In this document: positions 1,170 to 27,474 of the stretch, piece after piece
Layout: every line of letters starts with the position of its first letter
Numbering within the stretch: position 1 is the first letter of the stretch
NCBI GenBank assembly: GCA_965247685.1
Contig: OZ252021.1
Location: 150,001 to 182,000 of the forward strand
Length of the DNA: 32,000 bases
Source: Bdellovibrionales bacterium
GTDB lineage: Bacteria > Bdellovibrionota > Bdellovibrionia > Bdellovibrionales > UBA1609
Reading direction: 5' to 3'
Notes under the pieces: generated by a model
Told to the model about the DNA's origin: nothing
Database searches by the model: none
What the model saw: the letters and a program-made list of their open reading frames with translations, nothing else
Made by a program: the position numbers and the translations under genes

Positions 1170-3146
1170 TTAAGGACAATTGAAATATTTAAAAAGACTT
1201 CTTTGCCACTCTGCTTGGATTTTAAACCACATATGTCCCGAAATATATTCCGATTGAGTTCTTATTGCATATTCTCGGGCTGGAGAATCCTCTATATAAT
1301 TCAAATCAAGAATATAAGAAGGCTTCCAATCTGAGGGAGGATAAACGCAATGAGACATACGATTTCGACCTACAGCCCACACTAAAATATCAGGAGCTTC
1401 TTTGGATCCTTTTCTGATTTGACCGCTTCGGGCAGAGTAAAAAGAAAATTTGAAACTATTTTTTTGAAAATCAAAATCTTTATCAAGATATTTTAAAAGT
1501 TTTTCTTCTGTGAAAGTTTTTTCCAAAACATTCAGAACTCCTCCTCCTCCCCACACCGCTACGGATAAACTTTTCTTCTTGTGTTTGCTTATATTCTCGA
1601 TCCACATTCTTAAAAACAATGCTCCATAAACATCTGTATTAAAGCCTTTCCATTTTCCTTTGATCAAAATGATCGTATTCAAAGATTTCCAGTCTAAATC
1701 ACTCAGACAGAGTTTAAGATTTGAGAAACTATGAGTAGTGACTTGTGGATTTGTATCCCTCTCTTGAGAATTGAACTCTTTAAAGAGTTGATAAAAACTC
1801 TTTTTTAATGGAGATGTAATAGCTGCAAATTTCATACCCAAATTTTCTAAAATTTTTAAATTCAAAGAGTTCGCTTCTTTTTCCTTCATCAAAATTTTCA
1901 ATGTAAGAAGTTGCTTATCTTTAAAAAATAAAAATTGTTCAGAAGGAGTGATAGAGTGCTCAATAGGATTCCCTAACACACAAGCAAAACCTTTTGGTGA
2001 AGAATGGGTTACAAACCGACAGGCTTCTGCTATCACGGGTTGATCCAAAACCCCTTGATGAGTATCTTCTCGAAGAAAATAAATCAATTGCTGAGTTCCA
2101 AATAGGAGCCGATACCACTTCCACCTTCCATCAGCAGATCGAGGATGAAAAGAGCGATTTCCTTCTTTTTGCCATAAGTACCCTTTCCACAACTCTTCAA
2201 AAGAAAATATTTCGACAGCCAGCTTGCAATGAATATTTTTTTCTTTAGGAAATTTATTGAACAAAGATTCCAAAGTCTCGTCTTTTTCTCTAGTATGCAA
2301 AGAGTATATAGGTTGGGAGATTTTTTTAAAGAATGTATTCTCCAAACCCCACTCTAACGGCCAATCTATAGTCATCTCCTGAGAAGAAGAGTTGACCATC
2401 TTTTCCAAATAAGATTTAAAATGAGAATCTTTTTTTTCTCTAAAACTAAATAAAAGGTTTTGAATAGGTATTTTTTTTAACACTTTTTCTATAGAAGAGA
2501 TCGAAATCTCACTATTTTTTAATTCAAAAAACCTAAAACCCATTTGAATTTTATGATTCAAAAAGTTTTCTAGCTTCTCTTCATTAGGAAATTGTTTTTC
2601 TTGAAGAGTCAAAACACCATTAGTAAAAGGTAGACTTTTTTCTCCAAAAAACACCTGATCCTCTACTCCAAAACCTTGAAATCCATCCAAACGAGTCCAC
2701 ACTAAATCTCTTTGGCTTTGGTATAAAAGCTCTCTTTTTTTATATAATTCCTGATACTCACTCAAAGAGTCTTTATTTGAAAGAAGACGAGGACGATTAA
2801 AAAAAATTCTCCCATCGGAATCGCTTGTTCTTTTGAGGTGAATCACAGTACAAAAGTGAGGAATATCATCACTATACCCTGCACCTAAAGAAATCAATAC
2901 AATTCCATTAAAGTTTTTTGATTTTTGAAGACATTGCTGAAAAACTTTTTTCTCTACTTTTCTAAATGAGCTCTCTCCTTTTTCAAAAAGATGAAAAATT
3001 GTTTTTTGAGTCTTTTTCTCAATTTGTTGATCCACATCAAAGGTTAAAATAGGTAAATGATTTTCTTCAAAATGATTCTGAACAGTTTTTATCCATGAGG
3101 TTTTACCAGTCCCTCGATGACCAATAATCACATAAATATTTTTCAC
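1170..3146 (-). CDS. fused shikimate kinase / type I 3-dehydroquinate dehydratase / shikimate dehydrogenase (AroK-AroD-AroE-like)
   Basis: 658 aa. The N-terminus has the P-loop GHRGTGKTS, then FDVDQQIE...IFHLFEKGESSFRKVE and RPRL, which follow the shikimate kinase pattern. The middle has IDWPLEW...IYSLHTRE...HCKLAVE (divergent type I dehydroquinase pattern). The C-terminal third has VLGNPIEHSITPSEQ, AAITSPLKKS and FNTDVYG (AroE motifs). The start overlaps the aroA stop by 4 nt. Confidence 0.75.
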   Translation of the reverse strand: MKNIYVIIGHRGTGKTSWIKTVQNHFEENHLPILTFDVDQQIEKKTQKTIFHLFEKGESSFRKVEKKVFQQCLQKSKNFNGIVLISLGAGYSDDIPHFCTVIHLKRTSDSDGRIFFNRPRLLSNKDSLSEYQELYKKRELLYQSQRDLVWTRLDGFQGFGVEDQVFFGEKSLPFTNGVLTLQEKQFPNEEKLENFLNHKIQMGFRFFELKNSEISISSIEKVLKKIPIQNLLFSFREKKDSHFKSYLEKMVNSSSQEMTIDWPLEWGLENTFFKKISQPIYSLHTREKDETLESLFNKFPKEKNIHCKLAVEIFSFEELWKGYLWQKEGNRSFHPRSADGRWKWYRLLFGTQQLIYFLREDTHQGVLDQPVIAEACRFVTHSSPKGFACVLGNPIEHSITPSEQFLFFKDKQLLTLKILMKEKEANSLNLKILENLGMKFAAITSPLKKSFYQLFKEFNSQERDTNPQVTTHSFSNLKLCLSDLDWKSLNTIILIKGKWKGFNTDVYGALFLRMWIENISKHKKKSLSVAVWGGGGVLNVLEKTFTEEKLLKYLDKDFDFQKNSFKFSFYSARSGQIRKGSKEAPDILVWAVGRNRMSHCVYPPSDWKPSYILDLNYIEDSPAREYAIRTQSEYISGHMWFKIQAEWQRSLFKYFNCP

Positions 3147-6545: not shown

Positions 6546-6872
6546 AAATGAAAAAATATTCATTCTTCGCTCACAGCTTAATACAAAGAAAAATATCAGA
6601 GTGTCTTTTATTCTAAAAAGAAGAGAGGCTCACTTATTGTTAGGTAGAAAAGATCTGAATCTTTCCTTATAATCAATTTTGAAACATTTAAAACACTTTG
6701 ATTTGTAAAATTTTCACTTTGTAAAATTTTCACTATCTTATAAGAATTTTAGAGAAAATAAATTGAATAAGATAACCTCCTGAACAATATATCTAAGAAA
6801 AATTTACAAAGCATAGAAATTATTATAGACACTATGATTAATTTATACTAATAACAAATGAACTCCAAACAA
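6546..6872 (+). repeat. copy A of a ~325-nt duplicated noncoding leader (partner at 12238-12560)
   Basis: By-eye alignment to 12238-12560 shows long identical blocks: aaatgaaaaaata.tcattcttcgctcacagcttaatacaaagaaaaatatca, ctcacttattgttag, actttgatttgtaaaattttcact, gaaaataaattgaataa.ataacctcc, tagacactatga.taat.tatactaa, caaatgaact. There are a few indels. Copy A has an extra internal duplication of ttgtaaaattttcact. It ends ~10 nt before the TTG start at 6883. Confidence 0.85.
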
Positions 6873-6882
6873 GGAAAATAGA

Positions 6883-8349
6883 TTGAAAATCACCTGCAAA
6901 TATCTTCTGTTTTTATTTTTTGCGCCTTTACTGACTTCAGGATGTGGAGTTTTCACAGAGAAACCACAGAAAGTAAGTGACATATGCAGTCATGCCAATA
7001 GGCTCGATCAAGATTATTTAGAATGTGGAATAAGCCTTGAGATGAATACACCTGGAACAATTAAGCTCAAACTGTCTGGAAAAAACGATCTGCTCAAAAG
7101 CCTGAAAGGACAAGAACTATCATTAGTTACAGAAGCAGACCTTTCAAATAACCCAGAAATGATATCTATTCCTGAATTTATTCATCATTTCCCAAATCTA
7201 AAAACTCTCAATATTTCTCATACTAAAATTTCCAGTTGGGATGAGAATATCTGCCAGCTTGAAAAACTAGAAAAACTCATTGGAAGAAATAACCACTACG
7301 TGGATGATGAGGTACCCTTTCATACTTTCTGCCTTAAAAATCTAAAAGTTCTGGATATGTCTGACAGTCACATTCGGTATGTAGATGAATACATCGGAAA
7401 ACTCACTCACCTCAAAGAATTACACCTATCCGGCAATGACTTAATTCTTGCCCCCTTTATGCTCGTTTCACTAAAGAACTTACAACTAGTAGATTTTCAA
7501 GATAATTCACAATTTATTAATGAAGACTTAGCAACAATACAAAGTTGTGAAGATGAAGATGATGATGACAAAGAAGATTGTCAGGAAGATATTGCGGAGT
7601 CTTTTGAATGTGAGTTTTTTAACCCTATTCCATTTCAAAGAAAAAAACCTTTTAGAACACTATACATAGACCTCGTAGATTCCAGTGAAGTTATTTCAAA
7701 AGCTTGTGAAGAGGATAATTCTCCCATTTGCCCTCATTTTGTAAAACCTTGTAAACATATTACTAATGGAGTTCAAAGAAGAGAATGTATGCTCAATGAA
7801 TTTGAGAGCTTAAATATACATCCAGATCTATGGATTAATAGGGATAGATGTTATACATCTTGGGCAAAATGGTATAATGATTTTGAAGAATTTCCAGAAC
7901 TTTTAGAGTATTCTCTAGCTGGCAGAACCATTAGAGAGTTGCTATTTAGAACTAACTATAGTGAAGATAGATATAAGGATTCCTTAGGAAGAAAAATATT
8001 TGGAAAAGCTTATGGCGGTCCCGATATGACTTGTAATGTCTGGAACCCTGTTTCGGATATCGATTTTGAATTGTTTGGGATAACCCTGTTGGATAATAAG
8101 CCTGATCGAATAGGCCCTCAAAGATTCGAAGTCTTTCCTAAAATAAAGAGAGATATGTATGCTTCCGAGTTTGTCATACTTGCTAACAGAGAAGGATGGT
8201 TGGATTGGAATTTTTTTTATGACGAAGAAACGAAGCGATCAAAATCTATAGACTATATCAGTCAAACGAATCAATGTCCTCACTTGCCAGAGATAAGGGA
8301 AAAAGTGAAAAGATGGATGGAGGAAGTATGGGGCAAAGAACAAAATTAA
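6883..8349 (+). CDS. leucine-rich-repeat lipoprotein with acidic linker and Cys-rich C-terminal domain of unknown function
   Basis: 488 aa with a TTG start 7 nt after aagga. Lipoprotein signal MKITCKYLLFLFFAPLLTSG|C. At least 4-5 LRR units (NLKTLNISHTKIS, LEKLEKLIGRNN, NLKVLDMSDSHI, HLKELHLSGNDL, NLQLVDFQDNS). Acidic run CEDEDDDDKEDCQEDIAE. The ~250-aa C-terminal region has many Cys and Trp. Confidence 0.75.
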   Translation: MKITCKYLLFLFFAPLLTSGCGVFTEKPQKVSDICSHANRLDQDYLECGISLEMNTPGTIKLKLSGKNDLLKSLKGQELSLVTEADLSNNPEMISIPEFIHHFPNLKTLNISHTKISSWDENICQLEKLEKLIGRNNHYVDDEVPFHTFCLKNLKVLDMSDSHIRYVDEYIGKLTHLKELHLSGNDLILAPFMLVSLKNLQLVDFQDNSQFINEDLATIQSCEDEDDDDKEDCQEDIAESFECEFFNPIPFQRKKPFRTLYIDLVDSSEVISKACEEDNSPICPHFVKPCKHITNGVQRRECMLNEFESLNIHPDLWINRDRCYTSWAKWYNDFEEFPELLEYSLAGRTIRELLFRTNYSEDRYKDSLGRKIFGKAYGGPDMTCNVWNPVSDIDFELFGITLLDNKPDRIGPQRFEVFPKIKRDMYASEFVILANREGWLDWNFFYDEETKRSKSIDYISQTNQCPHLPEIREKVKRWMEEVWGKEQN

Positions 8350-11300
8350 TAACTTTAAAGACAAGTTTAAATTATATTTTATCTCTTTCTTTGGTGTTGA
8401 CACCTTATTCTGTTTTAGCAACAAGCTCTTCTTCCCAACAGTCTCTTGATGCTGAATCCTCCATTGAACCCTCCAGTGAATCCTCCATTGAACCCTCCAG
8501 TGAGTCCTCCATTGAATCCTTCTTGGATCAGCTCACAAAGAACCCTAGCTTAGATACTAATAACCCAGAAGTTCAAAGAGCTATTCAAGTAATAAACGAT
8601 TTGCATCAGGATATTATGACAGGAAACCTGTCTCAAGAGGAAAATTCAGAAGTAAGCAAAGAATTTGACACTCTCCGTTTAAGCAATCAGGTTGCAACTG
8701 TCTACGACGCACATGGAAATGTGTCTGGAGTAATACCTTTTGACTCCGAAGGCCATGTGAACAACAATTCATCAGAGAAAATTTTATCTATTGAAGTGAC
8801 GTTTGAATCTGGCTTGCTCACTTTTATCGGAGTTTCCATTCAGGGAGAAGAAGGCCAGGAAAAAAACGTCATAGAAAAACACGTCAGTGTCATTCAAACA
8901 ATTAAAAATATCAATGAAAAAAATGTATTAGAAAAATATGTTTATGATAAAGAAATCTTAGCTATTCTCTACCAAACAAAGGGTGGAATTGAACTTATTT
9001 TATATCACATGAACTACGCCACTGAACTCATCGGAAGGGCTCCCATTCCATCTACATCCTTTTACTTAGAAGAGTCTGATCTCCCAGAAAAGCTGGAATT
9101 AAAATTTGTTTCTCAAGAGAACCCCATTCGCAATTTAAATTTAGATAAGTATCCTATAAGAAACTCTGATGGTCAAAGTCTCCTGCAAGCTGGAGATTTG
9201 ATCATTTATAGCGAAGAAACAAAAAATTTTTCTATGCTCATAACAAGAGAAAATATCTATGAACGTATAAAGGAGATGTATGAAAGCCTTAACCTGCTTC
9301 TAGAAATTTCAAATTCCAGCAACACTTTAGAAAGACTGTTAGAAATATCCAGAGAACAGAAAGATATCAAAGCACATAGTCCAGAACAATTGATGTATGA
9401 TCTCATTAATAGAGTAACCAATCGAAATGCACTATATTTTCTAGATCGATATAGAAATTCAATCACTGGTATAGTACATCTTTTAGATACCTCAACCAAT
9501 GAACAGGAGAGAAATATCTTCATTCCTAAACAAGGGAGTGAAAATAAACCGACCGATGAAAAAAAACCTGAAGAAAATAAGAGAAAAATAAAGAGTTTTG
9601 TTTCTAAACCAATGGACTTCTTCAAATATATTAAATATTTATATCGTAAAGACTTAGCCCATAAAGGGAAGAAAGATCTCTTAACTTTTGAACAATGGAA
9701 AGAGAAAAAGACCGAAGGAAAACAATCTGAAGGTTTCATCAAAGAACACAAACTGGAATTAGCAGTTGCAACAATTGGAGCAGCAGCGGCTGTTTGGTAT
9801 TTTTCCACTTTAAAAGGTTTAGATAACTCTCCTTCAAGTGATGTACTACAGAATATGATCTTGTTAGGTGCAGGTGTATTGGGTTTACTTTACGGAGTCA
9901 CTGCTATTTTTATCCCATTGCTCAAAGGGATTGATAAATTGATTCCACCTGAGCTAAAATCTTTCAAACCTTTCAAACATTCCTTACGCAAAACTATTGA
10001 AAAGTGGCAGGGAAAAGATAAAAAAACATTAATCACTGGGCTGGGCTTTAAATTAGTAGCAGTCTTACTCCCTCTTTTTCACAGGTTATCTCAACTGGGG
10101 GGAGTCCCAAGTGTATTTAACGCATTAACTCGAGGAGTAAACTTCAAGAGTGCTATTGCCACTATTGAATCAGGCTCTGATTTAGGCAAAAAGCTTGGTT
10201 TAACAAAAAATATGAACTTATTTGGAGTGAGAAACCAAGACAAGAAGACAGTTGCTGTGGATTTGATGAGTCAAAGAGATCAAAGAGTCGAACATGTAGC
10301 TCGACTCATGGCTATGCGTGCAATGTTAGGCCACTCACATTTTGACGCTTCTGCAAGATTCTTAGGTACACTCAACTTGGATTTAGAGAAGCTCATAAAG
10401 AACCCTAACTTTGTGTCAGATTTCCAATGGATTTCTCAAACACTAGGTACACATATCTTAGAATCAAAGCAGATTAATGCCTTTCAAGGCCTGTTACAAT
10501 GGGATCAAGAGTCTCTTAATGATTTTTATAAAAGGGCACAAGAATTGTATAAGAAATCTCAAACAATACCTCGTGCACAAAAGATTGGTAAAAACACATG
10601 GGAAAACACTAAACATTTTGTATTCCAAAAAGTTTTTAATTGGAACTCAGCTCAAGCAGAAAGATTAAACAATATGATTCCATCTCACACGATTGCTAAT
10701 CAATTCCATTTAGGATTAATTATAGACCACATTACTATGGTTATGCTTCCTTTGACACTAGCCACGCCCAGAGGAGCCGACGGTATTCTATCAGGAGTTG
10801 ATACGAATCTATTCTTTAATTCGAGCAGACCTCATCTCTTTGAAGCTATAATGAATATTGCCGCGCACGTCTTAGCTACGGGAAGACAACAATTAGTTGA
10901 TCTGAATGCACTAAACATTGAAAGACTAAGAACATTATTGCAAACACAAAAAGCAGATAATAAATTTCAATCAACACAACAAGAAGAAAAAATATCTGTT
11001 CCAACTTTCTGGTTTTCTTCTCTTAAGTTCCCATTTCAACTAGGTACTAAAATCCGTGAAGGCTCTCGTTTTGAAGAAAAAGTAGACATTGGATCTTATC
11101 TATGGAAACTCCTGACAACTAGTTATAGATTTTGGGGTGTTAGCCTCGTTTTTTTATTTACTGGCAGACAATTTTTGACCGCTTCTGGAGTAGATATGAA
11201 CATTTTAGGTGCATTATACTTCTTAGTAGGAGGTATAATCTATTTTGGATGGCCTCAAATGTGGTCGCTGATGCACAATCAATCGTTGAGCAAGAGACTT

Positions 11301-12236
11301 CAATTCAATAAAGAAAATATTGAACTCATCCGCTTTGTAGAACACAAATTAGAAAAGAATCTTTATTCAAACAGGCAACAGGGAATTGATCAAGATTTTC
11401 AAAGAGTTATTACTGCCTTTCGATCACTTTATAGAACTTTTAACCAGATTTATTCAACAACAGTATCCCGTAAACTGTTTCGAACAGATCATAAAGGAAC
11501 AATACTTGACTCTTTGAGAAAAGGCATAGATCCAAGTGTCTTTAAACCTCTCCATACTCTTCTCAATACGAATGACACCAAGGAAGCTAAAAAGATAACT
11601 CAGGATCTGAACAAGCTACTAGATACTAAGCAACAAGAAGAACTAATAAAAATCATTAGTGATATCGTTCAAAATAATCCTGGAGATAAAAACCCTAATT
11701 CTAAATACTTCCCAACTGCAGAGAACAACGTTGCACTTTCCTCTCATCTACTATTGACTCTGGGGATATTCAGTAACTTAGCTTTTGTTTATCTCTCGAC
11801 GGATAGTTTTAATCAAGCACAAGTTAATATTACAAACATCTTACAATTATTTTTTGCCACACTTGGAGGAATTCTATCTTACAAACTGATAACATCTAAA
11901 TCTCTTCCGAATCATAAGGAAAATATTCAAAGATACTATGACAGACTAGCTGGACCGAAAATAAAAAATATTTTATTTTCTGGAAACCCAATACAACAAG
12001 AAATAGTAATTATTGATGCTCTTCGCAAAGCTGGTATAATCACTATGCGTCAACTAAGAAAATTAACAACAGAAGAACTCCTAGCTATACCTGATATAGG
12101 ACAGAAAAGAGTACAAATTATTAGAGAAAGAATGGCAGGTATCCCCTCTTCAAATTCGAAATTTCATTTCATTAGAGATGGAGTGAATAAATGTAAAGCT
12201 GTTCTTCGAAGAATTAACAACACAACAAATGAATAA
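8328..12236 (+). CDS. ~1300-aa exported/polytopic membrane protein of unknown function with C-terminal RpoA-alphaCTD-like HhH module
   Basis: The ORF is open from 8274. I prefer ATG 8328 (GGAGGA at 8319-8324); ATG 8313 is also possible. Signal-like N-terminus MGQRTKLITLKTSLNYILSLSLVLTPYSVLA and an SSIEPSSE repeat. A ~450-aa soluble region is followed by several hydrophobic helices (LAVATIGAAAAVWYFSTL, MILLGAGVLGLLYGVTAIFIPLL, LITGLGFKLVAVLLPLF, ILGALYFLVGGIIYFGW, LLLTLGIFSNLAFVYL, ILQLFFATLGGILSY). The C-terminal HhH module is at 12000-12134. It overlaps the LRR gene by 22 nt. Confidence 0.8.
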   Translation: MGQRTKLITLKTSLNYILSLSLVLTPYSVLATSSSSQQSLDAESSIEPSSESSIEPSSESSIESFLDQLTKNPSLDTNNPEVQRAIQVINDLHQDIMTGNLSQEENSEVSKEFDTLRLSNQVATVYDAHGNVSGVIPFDSEGHVNNNSSEKILSIEVTFESGLLTFIGVSIQGEEGQEKNVIEKHVSVIQTIKNINEKNVLEKYVYDKEILAILYQTKGGIELILYHMNYATELIGRAPIPSTSFYLEESDLPEKLELKFVSQENPIRNLNLDKYPIRNSDGQSLLQAGDLIIYSEETKNFSMLITRENIYERIKEMYESLNLLLEISNSSNTLERLLEISREQKDIKAHSPEQLMYDLINRVTNRNALYFLDRYRNSITGIVHLLDTSTNEQERNIFIPKQGSENKPTDEKKPEENKRKIKSFVSKPMDFFKYIKYLYRKDLAHKGKKDLLTFEQWKEKKTEGKQSEGFIKEHKLELAVATIGAAAAVWYFSTLKGLDNSPSSDVLQNMILLGAGVLGLLYGVTAIFIPLLKGIDKLIPPELKSFKPFKHSLRKTIEKWQGKDKKTLITGLGFKLVAVLLPLFHRLSQLGGVPSVFNALTRGVNFKSAIATIESGSDLGKKLGLTKNMNLFGVRNQDKKTVAVDLMSQRDQRVEHVARLMAMRAMLGHSHFDASARFLGTLNLDLEKLIKNPNFVSDFQWISQTLGTHILESKQINAFQGLLQWDQESLNDFYKRAQELYKKSQTIPRAQKIGKNTWENTKHFVFQKVFNWNSAQAERLNNMIPSHTIANQFHLGLIIDHITMVMLPLTLATPRGADGILSGVDTNLFFNSSRPHLFEAIMNIAAHVLATGRQQLVDLNALNIERLRTLLQTQKADNKFQSTQQEEKISVPTFWFSSLKFPFQLGTKIREGSRFEEKVDIGSYLWKLLTTSYRFWGVSLVFLFTGRQFLTASGVDMNILGALYFLVGGIIYFGWPQMWSLMHNQSLSKRLQFNKENIELIRFVEHKLEKNLYSNRQQGIDQDFQRVITAFRSLYRTFNQIYSTTVSRKLFRTDHKGTILDSLRKGIDPSVFKPLHTLLNTNDTKEAKKITQDLNKLLDTKQQEELIKIISDIVQNNPGDKNPNSKYFPTAENNVALSSHLLLTLGIFSNLAFVYLSTDSFNQAQVNITNILQLFFATLGGILSYKLITSKSLPNHKENIQRYYDRLAGPKIKNILFSGNPIQQEIVIIDALRKAGIITMRQLRKLTTEELLAIPDIGQKRVQIIRERMAGIPSSNSKFHFIRDGVNKCKAVLRRINNTTNE
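8454..8520 (+). repeat. 24-bp in-frame tandem repeat (2.8 copies) encoding SSIEPSSE
   Basis: The unit gaatcctccattgaaccctccagt is repeated at 8454-8477 and 8478-8501. A partial variant (gagtcctccattgaatcct) follows to 8520. Confidence 0.9.
12000..12134 (+). other. alphaCTD-like helix-hairpin-helix module at the C-terminus of the giant protein
   Basis: EIVIIDALRKAGIITMRQLRKLTTEELLAIPDIGQKRVQIIRERM fits the L..AGI.T...L...T..ELL.I...G.K....I pattern of the RNA polymerase alpha C-terminal domain / HHH_5-type modules. The same module is repeated in the next gene. Confidence 0.6.
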
Positions 12237-12237
12237 G

Positions 12238-12560
12238 AAATGAAAAAATACTCATTCTTCGCTCACAGCTTAATACAAAGAAAAATATCAAAGTTTCTTT
12301 TATTCTAAAAAAAGAACAGCTCTTAAAAAGAGGAGAAACTCACTTATTGTTAGATAGGAGAGCTTTAAATCTTTCCTTTAATGCTCAATTTTGAAACACT
12401 TTGATTTGTAAAATTTTCACTATTTTAAGAGTTTTTAAGAAAATAAATTGAATAAAATAACCTCCAAACAAATATATCTAATAAAAATTTCCAATAGTAG
12501 AAATTATCGTAGACACTATGAGTAATCTATACTAACAACACAACAAATGAACTTTAAACA
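12238..12560 (+). repeat. copy B of the duplicated ~325-nt leader (partner at 6546-6872)
   Basis: Begins 2 nt after the stop of the giant gene (TAA 12234-12236) and ends ~40 nt before the ATG at 12601. See copy A for the shared blocks. Confidence 0.85.
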
Positions 12561-12600
12561 ATTCTTCAAAGAATTAACAACAAAACATAAGGAGTAAGAA

Positions 12601-14199
12601 ATGAAAAATAGAAAACCTACCTACAAGGTTAAAGCAATAGACAAATCCACTGTATTTGTATTCTTTGCTGTTTCTTTAATCTTCTCTAGTCATTTTGTCT
12701 ATGCAGTAAGGCCTCTTAATCCAGAGAATTCAATGCGTCTACCTCCGCCTATTATTACTCCGCCTACTATTATTACAGATAGTAATAGTAGGGGGATAAG
12801 TTTTGTTCCAGCAGACACGATAAAAGATAAACTTTTGAACGCTGGCATAAAAACTGTTGGACAATTACACAATTTAACCCCAAAACAACTTAAAGCTATA
12901 CTGGGATCTAAAGATGCAAAACTTGTTCAAAAAGAACTTAATCGGCTAAATATTACTTCCCCTCTCAAAAGAAGTATTGAGGATTTATTTCCTAAAACAG
13001 AAGAACAAGAAATAGTTGCAGCACTTTCTAAAGCTGGCATAAAAAATATTAAAAACCTGCAAGAGTCAACCCCAGAACAACTTCAAGCTATATTGGGAAA
13101 GGAAAAAGCACAACTTATCCTAGAAAGACTTGAACAAACAACTTTGCCTCCTATCTCCGAAATAAGTATTGAGTATTTATTTCCTAAAACAGAACAACAA
13201 AAAATAGTTAAAGCACTTTCTAAAGCTGGCATAAAAACTCTTGGAGATCTGAAAAAATTAACTCAAAGCGAGCTTCGAACTATAAGTGGTCTAAGAGAGA
13301 AAGGTGTACAAAGCATTATAGATGGACTCAAACAACAAGGTATCTCCCTTTCTTCAAAACCGACTCTAAGCAAAAGAATAATTACAGGGACAACTTCTGC
13401 AGCTCAAAGGACAGCTTCTGGGGCAACTTCTTTGGCTCAAACTGTAGTAGATGGGACAGCTTCTGGAGCAACTTCTGTAGTTAAAGGGGCAACTTTTGCA
13501 GCTCAAAGGACAGCTTCTGGGGCAACTTCTTTGGCTCAAACTGTAGTAGATGGGACAGCTTCTGGAGCAACTTCTGTAGTTAAAGGGGCAACTTCTTTGG
13601 CTCAAACTGTAGTAGATGGGACAGCTTCTGGAGCAGCTTCTATAGTTAAAGGGACAACTTCTGTAGTTAAAAGGACAGGAGGAGCTCTTATTCCTAAAGA
13701 AAAGCCCACAGTTGATCTTAGAGAAGGTATTGAAAATTTTTTAGCTACTCCCAAAAGCGAAATCGCCGAAGTGAGTACTGAAATTGAACAATTATTTCCT
13801 AACAACAAAAGTATAGTTGAAGCACTTTCTAAAGCTGGCATAAAAACTCTTGAAGATCTGAACAATTTAACTCGAAAAGAGCTTCTAGCTATAAAAGGTA
13901 TAGGAAAGAGAAGTGTGGAAATTATTCTAGGAATAATAGGAACTCCCTCTTCATTAGAGGAAATATTTGGAAGAAGTATAGCTAAAGCACTTTTTAAAGC
14001 TGGCGTAGACACTCTTGCAGATCTGGACAAGTTAACTCCAGAAGAGATTCTAGATATACAGGGTATAGGAGAGAAAAGTCTGAAAATTATTATAGAAAGA
14101 ACGAGAACTACTCCCCCTTCAACAAAATTGGGGACACTTGGAAAAGCAGCTCAAAAATGTATGCAAGTTGTCGGGTCCCTCCTACCAAAGAAAAAATAA
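12601..14199 (+). CDS. exported or membrane-anchored protein with five alphaCTD-like HhH modules and a central Thr/Ala/Ser/Gly tandem repeat
   Basis: 532 aa, with AAGGAG 6 nt upstream of the ATG. K-rich n-region plus hydrophobic core STVFVFFAVSLIFSSHFVYA|V, then PPPIITPPTIIT. HhH modules lie at about 12814-12948, 12979-13134, 13163-13341, 13783-13938 and 13954-14100 (e.g. IVEALSKAGIKTLEDLNNLTRKELLAIKGIGKRSVEIILGII). The DNA block gcactttctaaagctggcataaaaa recurs at three of them. Confidence 0.8.
   Translation: MKNRKPTYKVKAIDKSTVFVFFAVSLIFSSHFVYAVRPLNPENSMRLPPPIITPPTIITDSNSRGISFVPADTIKDKLLNAGIKTVGQLHNLTPKQLKAILGSKDAKLVQKELNRLNITSPLKRSIEDLFPKTEEQEIVAALSKAGIKNIKNLQESTPEQLQAILGKEKAQLILERLEQTTLPPISEISIEYLFPKTEQQKIVKALSKAGIKTLGDLKKLTQSELRTISGLREKGVQSIIDGLKQQGISLSSKPTLSKRIITGTTSAAQRTASGATSLAQTVVDGTASGATSVVKGATFAAQRTASGATSLAQTVVDGTASGATSVVKGATSLAQTVVDGTASGAASIVKGTTSVVKRTGGALIPKEKPTVDLREGIENFLATPKSEIAEVSTEIEQLFPNNKSIVEALSKAGIKTLEDLNNLTRKELLAIKGIGKRSVEIILGIIGTPSSLEEIFGRSIAKALFKAGVDTLADLDKLTPEEILDIQGIGEKSLKIIIERTRTTPPSTKLGTLGKAAQKCMQVVGSLLPKKK
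13393..13676 (+). repeat. in-frame 99-bp tandem repeat (2 full near-identical copies plus truncated or degenerate copies)
   Basis: 13393-13491 and 13492-13590 differ by a single base (acttctgca vs acttttgca). The third copy (from 13591) lacks the first 33 nt of the unit and then degenerates. The encoded unit is TSAAQRTASGATSLAQTVVDGTASGATSVVKGA. Confidence 0.92.
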
Positions 14200-14223: not shown

Positions 14224-14257
14224 AAGTGATTTGCTATTTATAAATAGCAAATCACTT
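14224..14257. terminator. perfect 34-nt palindrome between convergent genes; likely bidirectional intrinsic terminator
   Basis: aagtgatttgctattta / taaatagcaaatcactt are exact reverse complements. The palindrome lies between the stop of the HhH gene (14199) and the stop of smc (14272). The flanking U-tracts are only modest. Confidence 0.55.
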
Positions 14258-14271
14258 TCTTTGAGACTGTG

Positions 14272-17200
14272 CTATGAAACAGGTTGTGCATCTTGATAGT
14301 TTCTCATTTCTACGGAAAGTAAATTTGTAATGCCTTTTTCTTCCATTGTCACTCCGTAAAGCCTGTCACAATTCTTCATAGAATACTTGTTGTGTGTAAT
14401 CAAAATAATTTGGCTTCTTCGAGCTATTTCTAAAATCAAAGCATTATATCTGACGATATTACTGTCATCTAAAGACGCATCGACCTCGTCTAATATACAA
14501 AAAGGTGCTGGACGAATCAAAAACAAAGAAACCACTACAGACAATGCCACAAGAGACTTCTCCCCACCAGAAAGGAGTTTTAAACTCTTGAGTTTTTTTT
14601 CTGGAAGACATGCTTCAATCTCAACACCATCATCCACCATACGAAAAGCTGCACAGCCCCCTCCAAATATAGATTTAAAAACCTGATCAAAGCGATGATT
14701 CACTTCCTTAAATGTTTTACCAAATTTTTGAGATGAAATTCGATCCATCTCTGTTATCACTTGCTCTAGTTCCTGCTTAGACTGCTTCAAATCTCCAAGC
14801 TGTTGATACAAAGTTTGGTATTCCTCATTCAGCTCATTATACTCACTGAGTGCGAGTAAATTCACTTGCCCAATTTTAGCAAGCTTACTCTTAAGCTGTT
14901 CTAATTTTTGAAAATCTTCTTTCATAGAATCTTGAACTTCTTCGATAGAGACTTGATGATTTTCTAAAGTTTTTTCCTCTATGTTTTTCTTTTCAACAAG
15001 ATTAGATTCTTTATTGATTTCTAATGTATGTTTTTGATCTAAAATATTTTCTAGATTTTGATTCAAGGAAGAAATTTGCTGCTCCATAGTTTTGTAAGAA
15101 GAAATACGATCCTGATACCCCTTCTCATTAAATTCTTGTTGTTGAACCTGAGCTTGATATTGCTCCTTTTTCTGAAACCATTTTTCTTTCCATTTTTCTA
15201 ACTCTTTCTGATTCTTTTTAATCACACTCTGACTTTGACCAGATTGCTCAGAAAATTTTAAAGATTTCTGACTCATCTCATTAATAGATTGCTTCAACAA
15301 TTGCTCTCGATAATGAACTGACTTTAAATCTTTTTGTAAATGCACTAAAGCCACCTGTGTGGCATCTAATGCAGATTTCATTTGATTTTTTTTATCTAAG
15401 CACTGATTTCTTTGAGCACGAACCTCATCATACTGATTTTGTAACTTATTTTTTTTATCTTTCACTTGTTCATACTTTTGTTGAAGTTCTTTAGATGAAC
15501 TATACACCTTTTCACTTTCTTTTTGCCCTTGCAGTTTCTGATATAAATTCTGATGCTCCTGTTCTATAAAAGATAACTCTTGCTTCAAAACTTCATATTC
15601 CTTTGAATGAGCATAAATATTCTTGCCTTCTTCATTGTATTTTTTATCCAATTGATCGAGATATTTCTCTAATTTTTTAAGCTCACTAGTTTTATCAGAA
15701 ACTTCCTTTTCTAAATCTTGAAACCGAACTTTTAACTGTTGAATCTCTGCCTCTAATTTTTGAATTTCTTTATCTTGAATAAGAATATCCGACTCTTTTG
15801 GATTAACACCTCCACAAAGAAGACGCCCATACTTTAGAATATCCCCTTCAAGAGTGACAAAAGTTATTTCCGGATGTACTTTAGACACTTTAATCATCTG
15901 ATCTACAGAATCCATCACACAAACACACTCAAAAAGAAAATCTAAGTCTAAGCCATTTCGAAATCGTACTTTGTCTTTTAAACAAATTCCCACATTCTGT
16001 GGGATCGATTGTTTTTTTACTTCACGGGTTAAAAGAAACAAAGCTCTTCCAAGGTTTTTCTTCTTTAGTGTTTTTAAAATATCAGAAGCAGAATGAACAT
16101 CCTGTACAATAAAACTATATAGGACAGAATCCAGAACAGCCGACACAGCCCTCTCATAGCCCAGCTCTACATCTAATACCTCCAACAAGTGTTTGAAAGA
16201 TTTCTCTTTTTTCACCCATTGATAGCCCTTCATTCGATATTCTGTTTTTTCTTTGAGCAAACATAAACTCCTATATTGAGATTCTTTCTCCATTAGTGCG
16301 AGTTGAAGTGACTTATATTCTTCCTTCTTATCTGTGATTTTAAGATTTGAGATATTCTCTTTTACAAACCTTAACTCCTCTTCAAGATTAAGGTGTATTA
16401 TCTTATCTCGCTCTATTTGAGTATTGAGTTTTTTACACTGCATTTTCAAAGATTGAATACGGGATTCCTTAACTTTCAGTTGAACCTCTAAATCTTGAGT
16501 CATCTGCTTATATTGCTGCTCATTTTGCTCATAATTTTTCATCACCTCTTCTAAGCGAGCCTCCTCCCTAAGAGCCTTATCGAATTGAGTTTGTAAGTCT
16601 TCCTGATTCTTCTCAAGTAAATCATACTGGAGCTGTAATTTTTCAAGCTGCACCTGTTTAGTCTCTACTTCTTTAGTACGAGATACGATTTGATTATTAT
16701 ATTTTTCTACTTGTTGTTTTAATGTTTCTATTTCTTCTAACTTTGATTTTTGAGAATCTTCAAACTCAGAAACATTAAGCTTCCAGTGATTGCTTCTTTC
16801 TGCATCAGAAGCAATAAGAGCCTCCAGTTTTTTAAATTGCACTTCATACTTTGTGAGTTCTTCCAAAGTTTTTCGCAAATTATTTCTTTCCTGAGAAAGT
16901 TGAGAATAAAGTGTTTCTGAGGCTGTTTGATTTTTATGATACCGTTCTTGCAAAGACTCTAACTGCCCTCTACATTCCTTTTCTTGTTGAACATATTTTT
17001 GAATACTCACTACATCTTCTTGAATTTTTCTTTGAATCTCTTCATACTTGGATTTCAAAGCACTCAATTCAATTTCTGTAATTTGCTGTTTTAAAGACTT
17101 ATAATTCTGAGCTTGTTGCGCTTGCTTCTCCAGTCTCTTTAACTGCTTGGTTTGTTCTTGAACAATATCTTCAAGACGTTGCATATTTTGACAAGTTGTT

Positions 17201-17748
17201 TTGAGTTTGTTTTCAGCTAACCTTTTTTTATTTTTAAATTTAGAAACCCCTGCAACTTGCTCGATGAGCGATCGCACCTGATCGGGTTTATAAGATATCA
17301 CTTGAGTCACATCTTCTTGTTTAAGAATACTAAAACCTAAAGCTCCTGTATCCATCAAAAGCTCTCGAATATCTCTTTGTAAACAAACTTGATTGTTAAT
17401 ATAGTACTGAGACTCTCCTCCCCGCTTCACCCTACGCTTAACTATGAGCTCATCTACAAATTGAAATTTTTCAGGCCACTCACCATCATCTTTATCGAAA
17501 ATAAGGCTCACTTCCGCAAAAAGAGAGGCAGAAGAACTTTGGGTTCCAGCAAAAATGATATCATCCATCTGCTGTCCTCTAAGCTGGCTAGCCATACTAT
17601 CACCTGTCGCCCACAAAATAGCATCTACGACATTGGATTTACCACAGCCGTTCGGACCTACAATACCTGTAATTCCTTGATCAAAGGAAATTTTAGTGTG
17701 TTTTTTGAAAGACTTAAAACCGGTCATTTGTAATTGAGTCAGTTTCAT
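14272..17748 (-). CDS. smc: chromosome partition protein SMC
   Basis: 1158 aa with N-terminal Walker A GPNGCGKSN and very long E/K/Q-rich coiled coils around a central hinge. C-terminal LSGGEKSL signature and Walker B ILDEVDASLD. Confidence 0.93.
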   Translation of the reverse strand: MKLTQLQMTGFKSFKKHTKISFDQGITGIVGPNGCGKSNVVDAILWATGDSMASQLRGQQMDDIIFAGTQSSSASLFAEVSLIFDKDDGEWPEKFQFVDELIVKRRVKRGGESQYYINNQVCLQRDIRELLMDTGALGFSILKQEDVTQVISYKPDQVRSLIEQVAGVSKFKNKKRLAENKLKTTCQNMQRLEDIVQEQTKQLKRLEKQAQQAQNYKSLKQQITEIELSALKSKYEEIQRKIQEDVVSIQKYVQQEKECRGQLESLQERYHKNQTASETLYSQLSQERNNLRKTLEELTKYEVQFKKLEALIASDAERSNHWKLNVSEFEDSQKSKLEEIETLKQQVEKYNNQIVSRTKEVETKQVQLEKLQLQYDLLEKNQEDLQTQFDKALREEARLEEVMKNYEQNEQQYKQMTQDLEVQLKVKESRIQSLKMQCKKLNTQIERDKIIHLNLEEELRFVKENISNLKITDKKEEYKSLQLALMEKESQYRSLCLLKEKTEYRMKGYQWVKKEKSFKHLLEVLDVELGYERAVSAVLDSVLYSFIVQDVHSASDILKTLKKKNLGRALFLLTREVKKQSIPQNVGICLKDKVRFRNGLDLDFLFECVCVMDSVDQMIKVSKVHPEITFVTLEGDILKYGRLLCGGVNPKESDILIQDKEIQKLEAEIQQLKVRFQDLEKEVSDKTSELKKLEKYLDQLDKKYNEEGKNIYAHSKEYEVLKQELSFIEQEHQNLYQKLQGQKESEKVYSSSKELQQKYEQVKDKKNKLQNQYDEVRAQRNQCLDKKNQMKSALDATQVALVHLQKDLKSVHYREQLLKQSINEMSQKSLKFSEQSGQSQSVIKKNQKELEKWKEKWFQKKEQYQAQVQQQEFNEKGYQDRISSYKTMEQQISSLNQNLENILDQKHTLEINKESNLVEKKNIEEKTLENHQVSIEEVQDSMKEDFQKLEQLKSKLAKIGQVNLLALSEYNELNEEYQTLYQQLGDLKQSKQELEQVITEMDRISSQKFGKTFKEVNHRFDQVFKSIFGGGCAAFRMVDDGVEIEACLPEKKLKSLKLLSGGEKSLVALSVVVSLFLIRPAPFCILDEVDASLDDSNIVRYNALILEIARRSQIILITHNKYSMKNCDRLYGVTMEEKGITNLLSVEMRNYQDAQPVS

Positions 17749-26775: not shown

Positions 26776-27474
26776 ATGAAAAATATATTTATTATTTGTT
26801 TTTATATATTTACCTCTAGTGCTTTTGCAAAGGGAAATGATTTTTATACGATTCTAAATTCCACAGAACACGTAGCAAAGGTAACGATGAATTTCTGGTC
26901 TTTTACAAGGAACTTTGCTTTACAAGAGGCATTGACTCCTTCAGAGTGCATTAGAATATATAAACATTATGATTTCCAGTCATATGAGTACGATTATTAT
27001 GGACTCGAAAAAATAATTAAGTTCACATTCGATGAAAAAATAAAAAAACCGTTTCATTCACTTTTTATAAAGTGGATATTTTTACCAAGTTCTCTAAGCA
27101 TAAAGATTGATGATGAATCAGCTTACGAACGTTTTTTGGGTCTAGATCTTATGAACTATGAGGTGATGGGAGAATCGAATAGTTTATTGAAGTTTTTTGA
27201 TACTTTTAGCTTAATTCATGATGATGTTCCCAATAAAAGGGATAGGTATTGTAGAATATTTATTCCAGAGAAGGCATTGTTTGTAGGTGGAGATGGGAAC
27301 ACTTATCTTCATGATGCAATTTTGGATGGGGATATAGGCAAAGTAGAAGAGTTGTTGGAAAATAAAGCAGAGCGCAGTTTAAAAAATAGTGATGGAATAA
27401 CTCCTATCGAATTAGCGATCCAGGAAGGAAATTCGCGTATAGTTAAAATATTGAGATATCATGGAGCAAGATAA
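26776..27474 (+). CDS. secreted ankyrin-repeat protein
   Basis: 232 aa with the signal peptide MKNIFIICFYIFTSSAFA. The C-terminal ~65 aa fit two ANK repeats (GNTYLHDAILDGDIGKVEELLENKAERSLKNSDGITPIELAIQEGNSRIVKILRYHGA). Confidence 0.7.
   Translation: MKNIFIICFYIFTSSAFAKGNDFYTILNSTEHVAKVTMNFWSFTRNFALQEALTPSECIRIYKHYDFQSYEYDYYGLEKIIKFTFDEKIKKPFHSLFIKWIFLPSSLSIKIDDESAYERFLGLDLMNYEVMGESNSLLKFFDTFSLIHDDVPNKRDRYCRIFIPEKALFVGGDGNTYLHDAILDGDIGKVEELLENKAERSLKNSDGITPIELAIQEGNSRIVKILRYHGAR

Follow-up and report, generated by a model that had tools for sequence, protein, structure and literature searches.

A predicted exported array of RNA polymerase alphaCTD-like modules encoded beside a polytopic membrane protein in a Bdellovibrionales bacterium

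The window analysed here, a 32-kb stretch of Bdellovibrionales DNA taken at its full length of 32,000 nt, holds on its forward strand a three-gene cluster encoding an LRR lipoprotein, a 1320-aa polytopic membrane protein and a protein made of repeated modules, which we call the array. The array gene is the ORF at 12601-14199 (+), whose coordinates proved exact and whose product is 532 aa long; its parts are as follows.

12589..12594, + strand: strong Shine-Dalgarno sequence AAGGAG, 6 nt 5' of the ATG at 12601
12601..12705, + strand: signal peptide, aa 1-35, with predicted cleavage between VYA and VRP (sequence rules, orthologue N-termini)
12706..12795, + strand: Pro-rich linker with PPPIITPPTIIT (15-nt x 2 repeat at 12743-12772)
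12796..12957, + strand: module 1, aa ~66-120, with a degenerate second hairpin, LGSKDAK
12976..13149, + strand: module 2, aa ~126-184, acidic, with a degenerate second hairpin, LGKEKAQ
13168..13347, + strand: module 3, aa ~190-250, second hairpin SGLREKG
13363..13677, + strand: nine 11-residue repeats, aa ~255-353, in 33-, 66- and 99-nt units
13783..13953, + strand: module 4, aa ~395-451, canonical second hairpin KGIGKRS
13954..14118, + strand: module 5, aa ~452-506, canonical second hairpin QGIGEKS
14119..14199, + strand: basic C-terminal tail STKLGTLGKAAQKCMQVVGSLLPKKK, then the stop codon (Cys520 codon at 14158-14160)
14224..14257, unstranded: palindrome with a perfect 15-bp stem where the array and SMC genes converge, likely terminating transcription in both directions

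Antisense ORFs at 13366-13605 and 13602-14030 were rejected as genes and are by-products of the repeat region.

The original prediction placed five alphaCTD-like HhH modules on this ORF, and the searches bear it out. Pfam matches the protein with HHH_5 (5 stretches, E 1.2e-27, 96.6 bits against a cut-off of 27) and RNA_pol_A_CTD (E 7.4e-23, 80.5 bits against 23.8), the latter also recognising module 4 by itself (E 6.3e-8). In a six-frame scan of the 32-kb window, a module profile found exactly five modules in the array ORF and a sixth at the C-terminal end of the ORF upstream, with no others; among the family's modules 13/16 individually match PF03118. The (L/Y)LFP(K/N) element that had been described as a linker is present before modules 2-4, as DLFPK, YLFPK and QLFPN, but its 'LF' is invariant ahead of modules in relatives and it is therefore an N-terminal module cap rather than a linker.

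A phmmer search of the PDB with the whole array protein returned no match, and module profiles were needed; with these, RpoA alphaCTD structures rank best (1doq at E 1.9e-8, 1z3e at E 6.5e-8), ahead of a partial match to the ComEA structure 8dfk at E 2.6e-5. The fold search agrees: Foldseek, queried with a single-sequence model whose module pLDDT is only 65-76, gives best matches that are all alphaCTD (target TM 0.86-0.87, rmsd 1.6-2.0 A), among them 1z3e_B (TM 0.86, rmsd 1.6 A) and 1lb2_E (TM 0.87). Of the two relatives against which comparison had been proposed, the alphaCTD type stands and the ComEA type falls, since the ComEA model TIGR01259 reaches only 21.1 bits on the array protein, below its cut-off of 152, and PF12836 (HHH_3) is absent from the Pfam matches. 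The array is not simply an RpoA chain either, with rpoA equivalog models at 62-65 bits against cut-offs of 228-277 and no RpoA N-terminal domain among its Pfam families. SAM_EPH scores 44.5 bits against a Pfam cut-off of 27 in one stretch only, and the tandem-SAM protein Caskin appears among the fold matches at a TM of only 0.36, with alphaCTD and HhH always scoring better; PDB profile searches found no eukaryotic homologue closer than bacterial alphaCTD. Judged by profiles and models, the modules are alphaCTD-like (HhH)2 units, closer to alphaCTD than to ComEA.

The '265 determinant' for UP-element DNA, which we take to comprise R265, N268, G296, K298 and S299 in E. coli numbering, is largely missing from the array. 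The R265/N268 equivalents, read by extending the HMMER alignment by hand without gaps, are T/D, E/A, K/K, S/E and S/K in modules 1-5 and are conserved in none, and G296/K298/S299 are retained only in module 4 (G/R/S) and module 5 (G/K/S). The second hairpins are degenerate in modules 1-3 and intact, as GIGxKS, in modules 4-5. Intact HhH hairpins, which also occur in nearly all of the orthologous modules, speak for polyanion binding.

Between modules 3 and 4 the nine 11-residue repeats, with the consensus S-x-A-x-x-(V/T)-(V/A)-x-G-(A/T)-(T/A), divide the array 3+2; in the model the block forms a single long helix, predicted with low confidence (pLDDT ~50). At its C-terminus the protein has a tail, helical in the model over aa 509-527, in which Cys520 is the sole Cys of the mature protein. 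At the window's 1.55% Cys the probability of at most one Cys in 532 aa is 0.002, and in 10/10 family members examined the tail likewise holds the only Cys of the mature chain, 6-14 residues from the C-terminus. This purge to a single residue might be a mark of an oxidising compartment. No more than about 8 residues of the tail are semi-hydrophobic, and searches for the sorting signals PEP-CTERM, GlyGly-CTERM, MYXO-CTERM and LPXTG gave no NCBIfam match at E <= 0.001; a sortase-type C-terminal signal was rejected because there is neither a transmembrane segment nor such a match. The 11-residue repeats, the single-Cys tail, the paralogous upstream module and the operon context described below were not part of the original prediction.

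That prediction also had the protein leave the cytoplasm behind a Pro-rich stalk. The stalk is there, as the linker listed above, and the N-terminus reads as an export signal: residues 1-15 contain 6 K/R, a 12-residue hydrophobic core follows at aa 17-28 (TVFVFFAVSLIF), and the c-region SSHFVYA puts V-Y-A at -3..-1 ahead of residue 36. By sequence rules and orthologue comparison, this matches what Sec and SPase I substrates show, namely a basic n-region, a 7-15 residue core and small residues at -3/-1, and aa 17-36 are the sole strongly hydrophobic stretch of the protein (Kyte-Doolittle 2.1). All four syntenic orthologues (4/4) carry signal peptides with a positively charged n-region, a short hydrophobic core and an AxA-like site, one example being MESKKYFKGIFIFLALILSNNPASA with I as the first residue after the cut, and signal-peptide-like N-termini occur in at least 13 other metagenomic alphaCTD-like arrays. 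The array protein is thus very probably exported from the cytoplasm, as its sequence indicates, and its N-terminus may be an uncleaved type II anchor instead of a cleaved peptide.

The mature array protein is strongly basic (pI 9.7, net charge +24), as are the arrays of the syntenic family (pI 9.8-10.7, net charge +24 to +117), compared with alphaCTD net charges of -3 in E. coli and -1 in B. subtilis. This polycationic character supports polyanion binding, and the array is probably an envelope protein that binds DNA or some other polyanion. Part of its richness in lysine reflects the AT-rich genome of the source organism as a whole.

The operon context provides the strongest functional lead. 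Upstream of the array gene lie the following features.

6760..6860, + strand: promoter-region element upstream of the LRR gene, ~100 nt, with high identity to 12444-12545
6883..8349, + strand: LRR lipoprotein whose C-terminal domain is rich in Cys; the conserved cluster begins with this gene (Pfam LRR_4/LRR_8)
8274..12236, + strand: big polytopic membrane protein, 1320 aa (1307 aa if the start is 8313), from sequence analysis
11970..12152, + strand: single paralogous alphaCTD-like module, aa 1233-1293 of the 1320-aa protein (module profile, 76.6 bits)
12192..12194, + strand: Cys1307 codon in the tail VNKCKAVLRRI, the sole Cys of the 1320-aa protein and an invariant alignment column
12444..12545, + strand: second copy of the promoter element, upstream of the array gene and inside a 364-nt spacer
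12546..12610, + strand: copy of the big-gene 3' end and downstream bases (12186-12250), 71% over 65 nt; 19/19

The LRR gene adjoins the big membrane-protein gene in every locus found, and its lipobox Cys is invariant in 6 orthologues; the protein is 51% identical to its orthologue in locus L082. Its best NCBIfam matches are XopAC/XopAE/XopL-type LRR effectors, all far below cut-offs. Pairing of the lone tail Cys with an unpaired LRR Cys was considered and is unsupported, the non-lipobox Cys count being even in 5/6 of the LRR orthologues.

The 1320-aa protein begins with a signal-like N-terminal segment, followed by a Ser-rich repeat and a large extracytoplasmic-looking region; next come 7-8 conserved hydrophobic segments, then the alphaCTD-like module and the Cys tail at the C-terminus. 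Hydropathy gives 7 clear segments and 1 weak one, with positive-inside rule conflicts, and an AF2 model from a 4-sequence alignment is unusable (mean pLDDT 35). Only the C-terminal module has Pfam or PDB relatives (Pfam RNA_pol_A_CTD, E 2.6e-4); its DNA is 65% identical to that of array module 4, and the basic single-Cys tail is common to both proteins. Because the two share a paralogous module and the same tail, and because the last module of the array at L090 is nearest to the big-protein modules (57%), a common descent is indicated, and the 3' end of the big membrane-protein gene is the most likely source of the array gene. The copy of that 3' end at 12546..12610 now supplies the array gene with its RBS and start codon. 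Two copies of the 27-mer core of the promoter element occur in the window, where chance would give 0.00. The 364-nt spacer between the big and array genes, in which no RNA family was found, is missing from orthologous loci.

Relatives of the array were difficult to recover with the protein itself: a GTDB genome scan gave no match, and a word-indexed homology search returned only the query and P0002, an unrelated 7-module array on a contig of small unknown ORFs. Orthologues were instead found by exhaustive HMMER search, and the nearest genomes and the synteny through PPDK. These genomes are 1.16-1.40 Mb MAGs labelled 'Bdellovibrionales'. The gene order LRR, big gene, array, SMC(-), PPDK(-) is repeated in L082, L089 and L090, with big/array junctions of an 8-nt gap, a 4-nt overlap and 33 nt, respectively. 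In a further locus, L086, the array gene is absent and the big gene abuts SMC; the array gene is therefore dispensable. The syntenic family delineated here comprises the target, P0009, P0018 and P0049, each encoded between the LRR/big-membrane gene pair and SMC, and each with a signal peptide, at least two LF-capped modules and an (N/K/Q)KC tail that contains its sole Cys.

Within this family the array gene evolves much faster than the rest of the locus, at ~25% identity against 39%, 51% and 75% for the other genes (75% being SMC), and its repeats turn over fast, with 4, 3 or 2 modules in three other metagenomic loci. P0009 and P0018 have K-rich apolipoprotein-like spacers with faint Pfam Apolipoprotein marks, P0049 has no spacer, and the spacers are not conserved in sequence. 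Other metagenomic arrays have the module type and tandem layout of the target. Some of these have a signal peptide (P0005, P0006, P0007, P0034, P0035, P0052, P0133) and others lack one (P0002, P0008, P0011). They are singletons that do not lie beside an LRR/membrane-protein pair, and most of the exported ones carry a Cys within a few residues of the signal peptide's end and have no C-terminal Cys tail. As a weak circumstantial point, pilO-pilP-pilQ are found five genes upstream of the gene for P0006, one of the exported arrays.

Comparison with known systems sets the array apart from each of them. Its modules have the five-helix (HhH)2 fold of alphaCTD (PF03118) and of the NusA acidic repeats, the K-A-G-I of the first hairpin matches alphaCTD, and the G-I-G-x-K-S of modules 4-5 corresponds to the G296-K298-S299 region. 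Unlike RpoA, the array has five copies and no RpoA N-terminal domain; unlike the acidic or neutral alphaCTD, it appears exported, is strongly basic, lacks the R265/N268 UP-element determinant, and adds an N-terminal 'E-x-L-F' cap to the module and a Cys tail to the chain. ComEA, to our knowledge the sole well-studied precedent for extracytoplasmic HhH proteins, places an N-terminal export or anchor signal ahead of (HhH)2 DNA-binding units outside the cytoplasm, and by sequence rules the array has the same order. ComEA differs in having one (HhH)2 domain of another subfamily (HHH_3/TIGR01259) encoded in com/pil regulons, whereas the array combines five alphaCTD-type modules with a repeat spacer and a Cys tail, and its gene has other neighbours. 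The C-terminal half of Methanopyrus kandleri topoisomerase V, in which tandem (HhH)2 units give multivalent, sequence-independent, salt-tolerant DNA binding, resembles the array in its many HhH units per chain; that protein, however, is archaeal and cytoplasmic, its repeats are joined to a catalytic domain, and they do not resemble alphaCTD. A search of the literature for exported alphaCTD-like proteins found nothing relevant. In the window itself no match to PADLOC and only trivial PHROG matches were obtained, and defence-system and phage origins were rejected.

The reading we prefer, with a probability of roughly 0.4, is that the array is a Sec-exported basic envelope protein that acts as a multivalent, sequence-independent binder of polyanions, most probably DNA. 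The signal peptide would be cut at about residue 35, leaving the Pro-rich linker, three alphaCTD-like (HhH)2 modules, a ~100-residue 11-mer repeat that is probably a helical spacer or a membrane-hugging segment, modules 4-5, and a short basic helix with the sole Cys at the chain end. Soluble array would bind its polyanion in the periplasm or at the surface, working functionally with the LRR lipoprotein and the 1300-aa polytopic membrane protein encoded upstream. We infer a physical coupling in which the array acts beside the membrane protein or is handed to it, the common Cys tail serving as a docking or cross-linking point between the two. The non-conservation of R265/N268 and the degenerate hairpins of modules 1-3 count against DNA binding, and the LRR partner also counts against the DNA reading, since it suggests recognition of protein rather than DNA.

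The leading alternative, possible if rather unlikely, is that the array is a host- or prey-directed interaction protein whose modules are protein-protein units, released or displayed at the surface with the LRR lipoprotein. AlphaCTD contacts activators, and the structurally similar SAM domains act in eukaryotic scaffolds. The targets would be host (e.g. sponge) or prey molecules, and an arms race or adaptation to the host would drive the rapid turnover of repeats, as would fit the fastest-evolving gene of the locus with a module number of 2 to 5. The effector-like matches of the LRR partner, the SAM_EPH and Caskin matches, the loss of the R265/N268 DNA determinant, and an ankyrin protein with a signal peptide encoded in the window are consistent with this; so is the small size of the nearest MAGs, similar sponge-associated Bdellovibrionota being rich in ankyrin repeats (PMC9944714), although that host link may not apply to the source genome. 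Against it, a Sec signal alone reaches only the periplasm of a diderm, and neither genes for a secretion system nor any secretion signal could be recognised in the window; so strong a positive charge is seen more often in polyanion binders than in SAM-like scaffolds, and bacterial alphaCTD remains nearer than any eukaryotic homologue.

Unlikely to a greater degree is a structural envelope component in which the lone Cys and the 11-mer helix polymerise or cross-link, or the amphipathic repeats coat the membrane, with the HhH modules as homotypic interaction units and nucleic acid not involved. The invariant Cys position in 10/10 proteins, the modelled long helix, the apolipoprotein-like spacers of P0009 and P0018, and the tight or overlapping junctions with the membrane-protein gene all argue for such a role. 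The spacers, however, are unconserved in sequence or even presence (P0049), the helix prediction is of low confidence, the even Cys count of 5/6 LRR partners leaves no obvious free thiol partner, and the conserved GIG hairpins of the orthologues suggest retained ligand binding.

A strict periplasmic ComEA-type competence receptor feeding a ComEC channel is improbable. An extracytoplasmic (HhH)2 protein is the defining ComEA idea, and 8dfk was matched. Nevertheless, the alphaCTD models are consistently better than TIGR01259 and HHH_3, a close relative (L086) does without the array gene, and no gene for competence, pili or nucleases lies in the 32-kb window, comEC and type IV pilus genes included; small MAGs of related sponge Bdellovibrionota reportedly have no type IV pili (PMC9944714).

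Scarcely credible is the cytoplasmic decoy also raised in the original prediction, titrating alphaCTD-binding regulators or UP-element DNA behind a non-functional hydrophobic N-terminus: only the alphaCTD-like fold speaks for it, and it is made unlikely by the well-supported export (signal peptides are kept in all orthologues despite divergence elsewhere, and the positively charged n-region enforces N-in/C-out even if uncleaved), by the loss of R265/N268 in all five modules, and by a Cys purge and extreme basicity unlike RpoA.

Returning to the polyanion-binding envelope protein, a bolder extension of it, which we regard as speculative and doubtful, is that the LRR lipoprotein, the membrane protein and the array form an undescribed envelope machine for taking up DNA from outside the cell, from a host or from prey, or some other polyanion, which it would pass to or through the membrane protein, with the Cys coupling the array covalently to its paralogue and the whole replacing ComEA/pilus uptake. 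If true, this machine would belong to reduced-genome, host-associated Bdellovibrio-like bacteria and would be built from a domain taken over from RNA polymerase.

Textbooks present alphaCTD as a cytoplasmic module of transcription, and a conserved multi-copy version that is Sec-exported and linked to a giant membrane protein would show its fold re-used outside the cell, here in an uncharacterised three-gene envelope cluster of poorly known small-genome relatives of Bdellovibrio. The single-cysteine tail offers a simple testable handle. If the ligand is DNA, capture of DNA outside the cytoplasm would have been solved a second time, independently of ComEA, with a bearing on nutrient scavenging or gene transfer in pilus-less symbionts; if it is a host molecule, the modules would be a new repeat class among the ankyrin/LRR/TPR 'eukaryote-like' proteins of symbionts.

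The original prediction described an array of five modules resembling the C-terminal domain of the RNA polymerase alpha subunit (alphaCTD), of helix-hairpin-helix (HhH) type, and its module signature, xLFP(K/N) elements and PPPIITPPTIIT stretch are all found in the array ORF.

Array gene, surrounding elements and tail codons (window positions)
12601-14199, + strand: array ORF, a real ORF of 532 aa
12589-12594, + strand: Shine-Dalgarno AAGGAG, 6 nt 5' of the array ATG
14224-14257: perfect palindrome with a 15-bp stem, between the array ORF and the convergent SMC gene
12192-12194: tail Cys codon of the upstream gene for a 1320-aa polytopic membrane protein
14158-14160: tail Cys codon of the array gene

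The repeats are matched in Pfam by HHH_5 at E 1.2e-27, in five stretches, and by RNA_pol_A_CTD at E 7.4e-23, where 80.5 bits exceed the cut-off of 23.8. With a profile made from the modules, five copies and no more are located in the ORF, at aa 68-120, 127-184, 191-250, 396-450 and 453-506. A sixth module lies at the C-terminus of the membrane protein, and the profile returned no further copy from the six-frame translation of the window. Absent from the original prediction were nine 11-residue repeats (aa ~255-353; consensus S-x-A-x-x-V/T-V/A-x-G-A/T-T/A) that divide the array 3+2 and whose DNA forms 33-, 66- and 99-nt tandem units of up to 96% identity; a basic C-terminal tail, ...GKAAQKCMQVVGSLLPKKK, with the protein's only cysteine; and the paralogous module DNA of the membrane-protein gene (12005-12140), 65% identical to module 4. 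Two antisense ORFs, 13366-13605 (-) and 13602-14030 (-), of 79 and 142 aa, are low-complexity repeat by-products and not credible genes.

A PDB search with a profile of the six window modules gave B. subtilis RpoA alphaCTD as best match (1z3e, E 3.6e-6), with the NusA acidic repeats (5e-4) and the competence DNA receptor ComEA (0.013) both behind it; a broader profile of 16 modules from relatives matched T. thermophilus alphaCTD (1doq, E 1.9e-8) and 1z3e (6.5e-8), and ComEA (8dfk) only partially (2.6e-5). The single-sequence AlphaFold2 model of the array is poor (mean pLDDT 55; modules 65-76), and its top Foldseek matches in the PDB are alphaCTD chains throughout (1z3e_B and 1lb2_E, target-normalised TM-score 0.86-0.87, rmsd 1.6-2.0 A), with Caskin tandem SAM domains as weaker matches and no ComEA chain in the top 50. 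Because the PDB profile searches and Foldseek rank alphaCTD best, the modules are confirmed as alphaCTD type rather than ComEA type; Pfam, the profile searches and Foldseek thus bear out the proposed module identity. Judged by sequence, the array is a member of the alphaCTD/HhH superfamily at the domain level. It does not count as an RpoA, since the RpoA N-terminal domain is missing and the scores of rpoA models fall far short of their cut-offs. We take R265, N268, G296, K298 and S299 (E. coli alphaCTD numbering) to be the functional residues, the R265/N268 equivalents being read by ungapped extension of the six-module PDB alignment into helix 1.

Equivalents of R265/N268 and of G296/K298/S299 in the array modules
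Module 1: T/D; G/K/D
Module 2: E/A; G/E/K
Module 3: K/K; R/K/G
Module 4: S/E; G/R/S
Module 5: S/K; G/K/S

In this alignment the UP-element determinant is lost from the array modules. Generic backbone-binding hairpins are kept, at the sequence level, in modules 4 and 5 and in nearly all orthologue modules, and those of modules 1-3 are degenerate.

The prediction that the protein leaves the cytoplasm is upheld both by its N-terminus and by its relatives. Residues 1-15 include six K/R, a short hydrophobic core follows at aa 17-28 (TVFVFFAVSLIF), and SSHFVYA gives V at -3 and A at -1; the rest of the protein contains no other strongly hydrophobic stretch. This is a rule-based call, and even as an uncleaved anchor the charged n-region would put the remaining chain outside the cytoplasm. 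The comparative evidence, drawn from sequence, is stronger: the three syntenic orthologues, with the rest of the chain diverged almost beyond recognition, carry classical N-terminal signal peptides (MESKKYFKGIFIFLALILSNNPASA/I, ...MKKFKIQGISLLILMSPLAYA/Q and MRRIKILNNLFMIQGMLLLILISPIAHA/I, cleavage at the slash).

These orthologues are three weak matches from an exhaustive HMMER search with the array against 1.84 billion representatives, which returned no close relative (best E 9e-29, 14 matches below 1e-10); each lies between SMC and a pair of genes for an LRR lipoprotein and the membrane protein, and all array relatives are metagenomic singletons.

The target array and its positional orthologues
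Target (window): pI 9.8, net charge +24
P0009 (L082, 1.16-Mb contig): 610 aa, 4 modules, 8-nt gap to the membrane-protein gene; pI 10.0, net charge +57
P0018 (L089): 662 aa, 3 modules, 4-nt overlap with that gene; pI 10.7, net charge +117
P0049 (L090): 213 aa, 2 modules, 33-nt gap to that gene, which is fragmented; pI 10.7, net charge +24

Since the LRR gene adjoins the membrane-protein gene in all recovered loci (window, L082, L086, L087, L088, L089), and in L086 the latter abuts SMC with no array gene, the pair is the core and the array is accessory. Identity between the window and L082 is 75% for SMC, 51% for the LRR protein, 39% for the membrane protein and about 25%, confined to modules, for the array, whose module number and spacer type also vary between the two; by this sequence measure no other gene of the locus evolves as fast or is as plastic as the array. 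The 1320-aa ORF overlaps the LRR ORF by 76 nt (8274-8349), or by 37 nt in the database gene call (1307 aa from 8313, MDGGSMG...), which suggests translational coupling. Just after its signal-like segment a 12-nt tandem repeat (8453-8524) encodes SSIEPSSESSIEPSSESSIES, most of which is missing from the L082 orthologue.

All four arrays are strongly polycationic, in contrast to alphaCTD of E. coli and B. subtilis, with net charges of -3 and -1. Lysine richness is partly a genomic trait, and high basicity is not universal in the window (LRR partner pI 5.0, porin-like neighbour pI 4.4). In the target the spacer consists of 11-residue repeats, modelled as a single ~95-residue helix at low confidence; P0009 and P0018 have K-rich stretches with faint apolipoprotein-like Pfam marks, and P0049 has no spacer.

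A link between the array and the membrane protein is evident at their C-termini, which in 6/6 membrane proteins and 4/4 arrays consist of one LF-capped module and a short basic tail with an invariant Cys (VNKCKAVLRRI, ANKCMNAFKKI, VKKCKEIFNAIKR, SNKCMKFFNK; in the target AQKCMQVVGSLLPKKK). In 10/10 proteins (window, L082, L086-L090) the mature chain has no other Cys, and this one sits 6-14 residues from the end; at the 1.55% Cys of the window's other proteins, a chain of 1320 aa should contain ~20, and the probability of at most one in 532 aa is 0.002. The Cys may be disulfide-bonded, lipid-modified or otherwise used. In the L090 array the final module is nearest to membrane-protein modules (57% and 52%), not array modules. 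Taken with the DNA-level similarity seen in the window, this likeness suggests an origin of the array gene from the 3' end of the membrane-protein gene, followed by amplification of its module.

The ~360-nt spacer between the two genes in the window, missing in the orthologous loci, holds two duplications. One, 12444-12545, is a second copy, at high identity, of ~100 nt that lie ahead of the LRR gene (6760-6860), with the core TAGACACTATGA(G/T)TAAT(C/T)TATACTAA; the 27-mer core occurs twice in the window against 0.00 expected by chance. The duplicated stretch resembles a promoter or 5' region common to both genes, and a sigma-70 consensus scan called no promoter in it. The other copies the membrane-protein gene's 3' end and post-stop bases (12186-12250) to 12546-12610, just before and into the array gene start; 12215-12233 equals 12533-12551 (19/19), and after the first copy comes a relic start (ATGAAAAAATAC...). 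The repeated 3' end has the look of a scar left when ~360 nt were inserted between two once-abutting genes. The array gene has apparently gained its own copy of the cluster promoter region, which argues for continued co-regulation with the cluster.

The contig is 1.28 Mb long (window mean GC roughly 35%), and the window's PPDK is 72% and 71% identical to those of two 'Bdellovibrionales bacterium' MAGs, one a 1.40-Mb chromosome, the next-best genomes reaching only ~53%. Bdellovibrionota MAGs described from one glass sponge are small (1.24 Mb, 32% GC), ankyrin-rich and without flagella or pili (PMC9944714), and a sponge-type small-genome lifestyle is, by analogy, a plausible context for this organism. 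Several uncharacterised window proteins have signal peptides, and an ankyrin-repeat protein, 26776-27474 (+), has a clear Sec signal peptide (MKNIFIICFYIFTSSAFA/KGN), a combination typical of host-associated bacteria. Gene order in two GTDB relatives is PPDK-SMC-(small secreted protein)-aroB-aroA-aroK/E; the ~8.9-kb aroB-SMC interval of the window holds a 181-aa ORF, the LRR lipoprotein gene (6883-8349), the 1320-aa gene (8274-12236) and the array gene. At the corresponding site the cluster is missing from the two GTDB genomes nearest to this one, which instead carry genes for proteins of 233-243 aa (L002 20882-21592 (-) and 21753-22484 (-); L003 18921-19622 (-)). These have a signal peptide, followed within a few residues by a Cys, and a single alphaCTD-like module, which in one protein passes the PF03118 threshold (26.4 bits); the lineage thus has exported alphaCTD-like proteins in other forms too. 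SMC has 902 aa there (L002 12658-15366, L003 10901-13609) against 1158-1162 aa in the window (14272-17748), L082 and L089, so that one sub-lineage's SMC appears to lack ~250 coiled-coil/hinge residues. A 658-aa fusion, 1170-3146 (-), of N-terminal shikimate kinase and C-terminal shikimate dehydrogenase, present in all relatives, sits within an aroC-aroK/E-aroA-aroB operon.

The array is thus an exported, basic, multi-module alphaCTD-like protein, genetically coupled to an LRR lipoprotein and to a membrane protein that shares its module and tail. We give a probability of roughly 40% to a layered reading in which this coupled array would bind a polyanion, most plausibly DNA, independently of sequence and multivalently, in the periplasm or at the surface, and would work with the membrane protein through the lone Cys tail. 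Against it stand the lost R265/N268 determinant, the degenerate hairpins of modules 1-3, the absence of competence genes from the 32-kb window, the dispensability of the array in L086 and the ambiguous membrane side of the membrane protein's C-terminus. Elsewhere, in L085 (1-2946 and 6001-10656), P0006, a 1551-aa exported alphaCTD-like array, lies five genes downstream of pilO-pilP-pilQ, a position that circumstantially favours DNA handling; a weak N_methyl (pilin-like) match occurs in the third gene downstream of P0006. A protein directed at host or prey, to which the LRR partner, ankyrin context, fast evolution and SAM-like fold would point, is a somewhat unlikely alternative, and a purely structural or cross-linking envelope protein is less probable again. 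With 21 bits for TIGR01259, whose cut-off is 152, the array falls outside the ComEA family, and a strict ComEA competence receptor is very improbable. The cytoplasmic decoy offered in the original prediction is hardly credible, because the orthologues and ~13 more alphaCTD-like arrays, among 136 matches of the exhaustive search, carry signal peptides or signal-peptide-like N-termini.

Extracytoplasmic HhH proteins are already known, and ComEA and the multi-HhH tail of topoisomerase V, with which the array may share a way of working, are functional analogies only; our literature search found no exported alphaCTD-like proteins. New here is an extracytoplasmic HhH protein from a different HhH subfamily, with a new architecture and gene context. 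Without a signal peptide, P0002 (L001 10001-11449, JGI 3300045300; 482 aa) has six or seven canonical alphaCTD modules that keep LSxRxxNxL; its contig may be viral, because it carries many small uncharacterised ORFs with RLIG1, MYG1 exonuclease and Asp/Arg hydroxylase genes. For the array, whose function we infer, there are three surprises, all easy to test: the re-use of the domain, the cluster of three genes and the tail with its single Cys.
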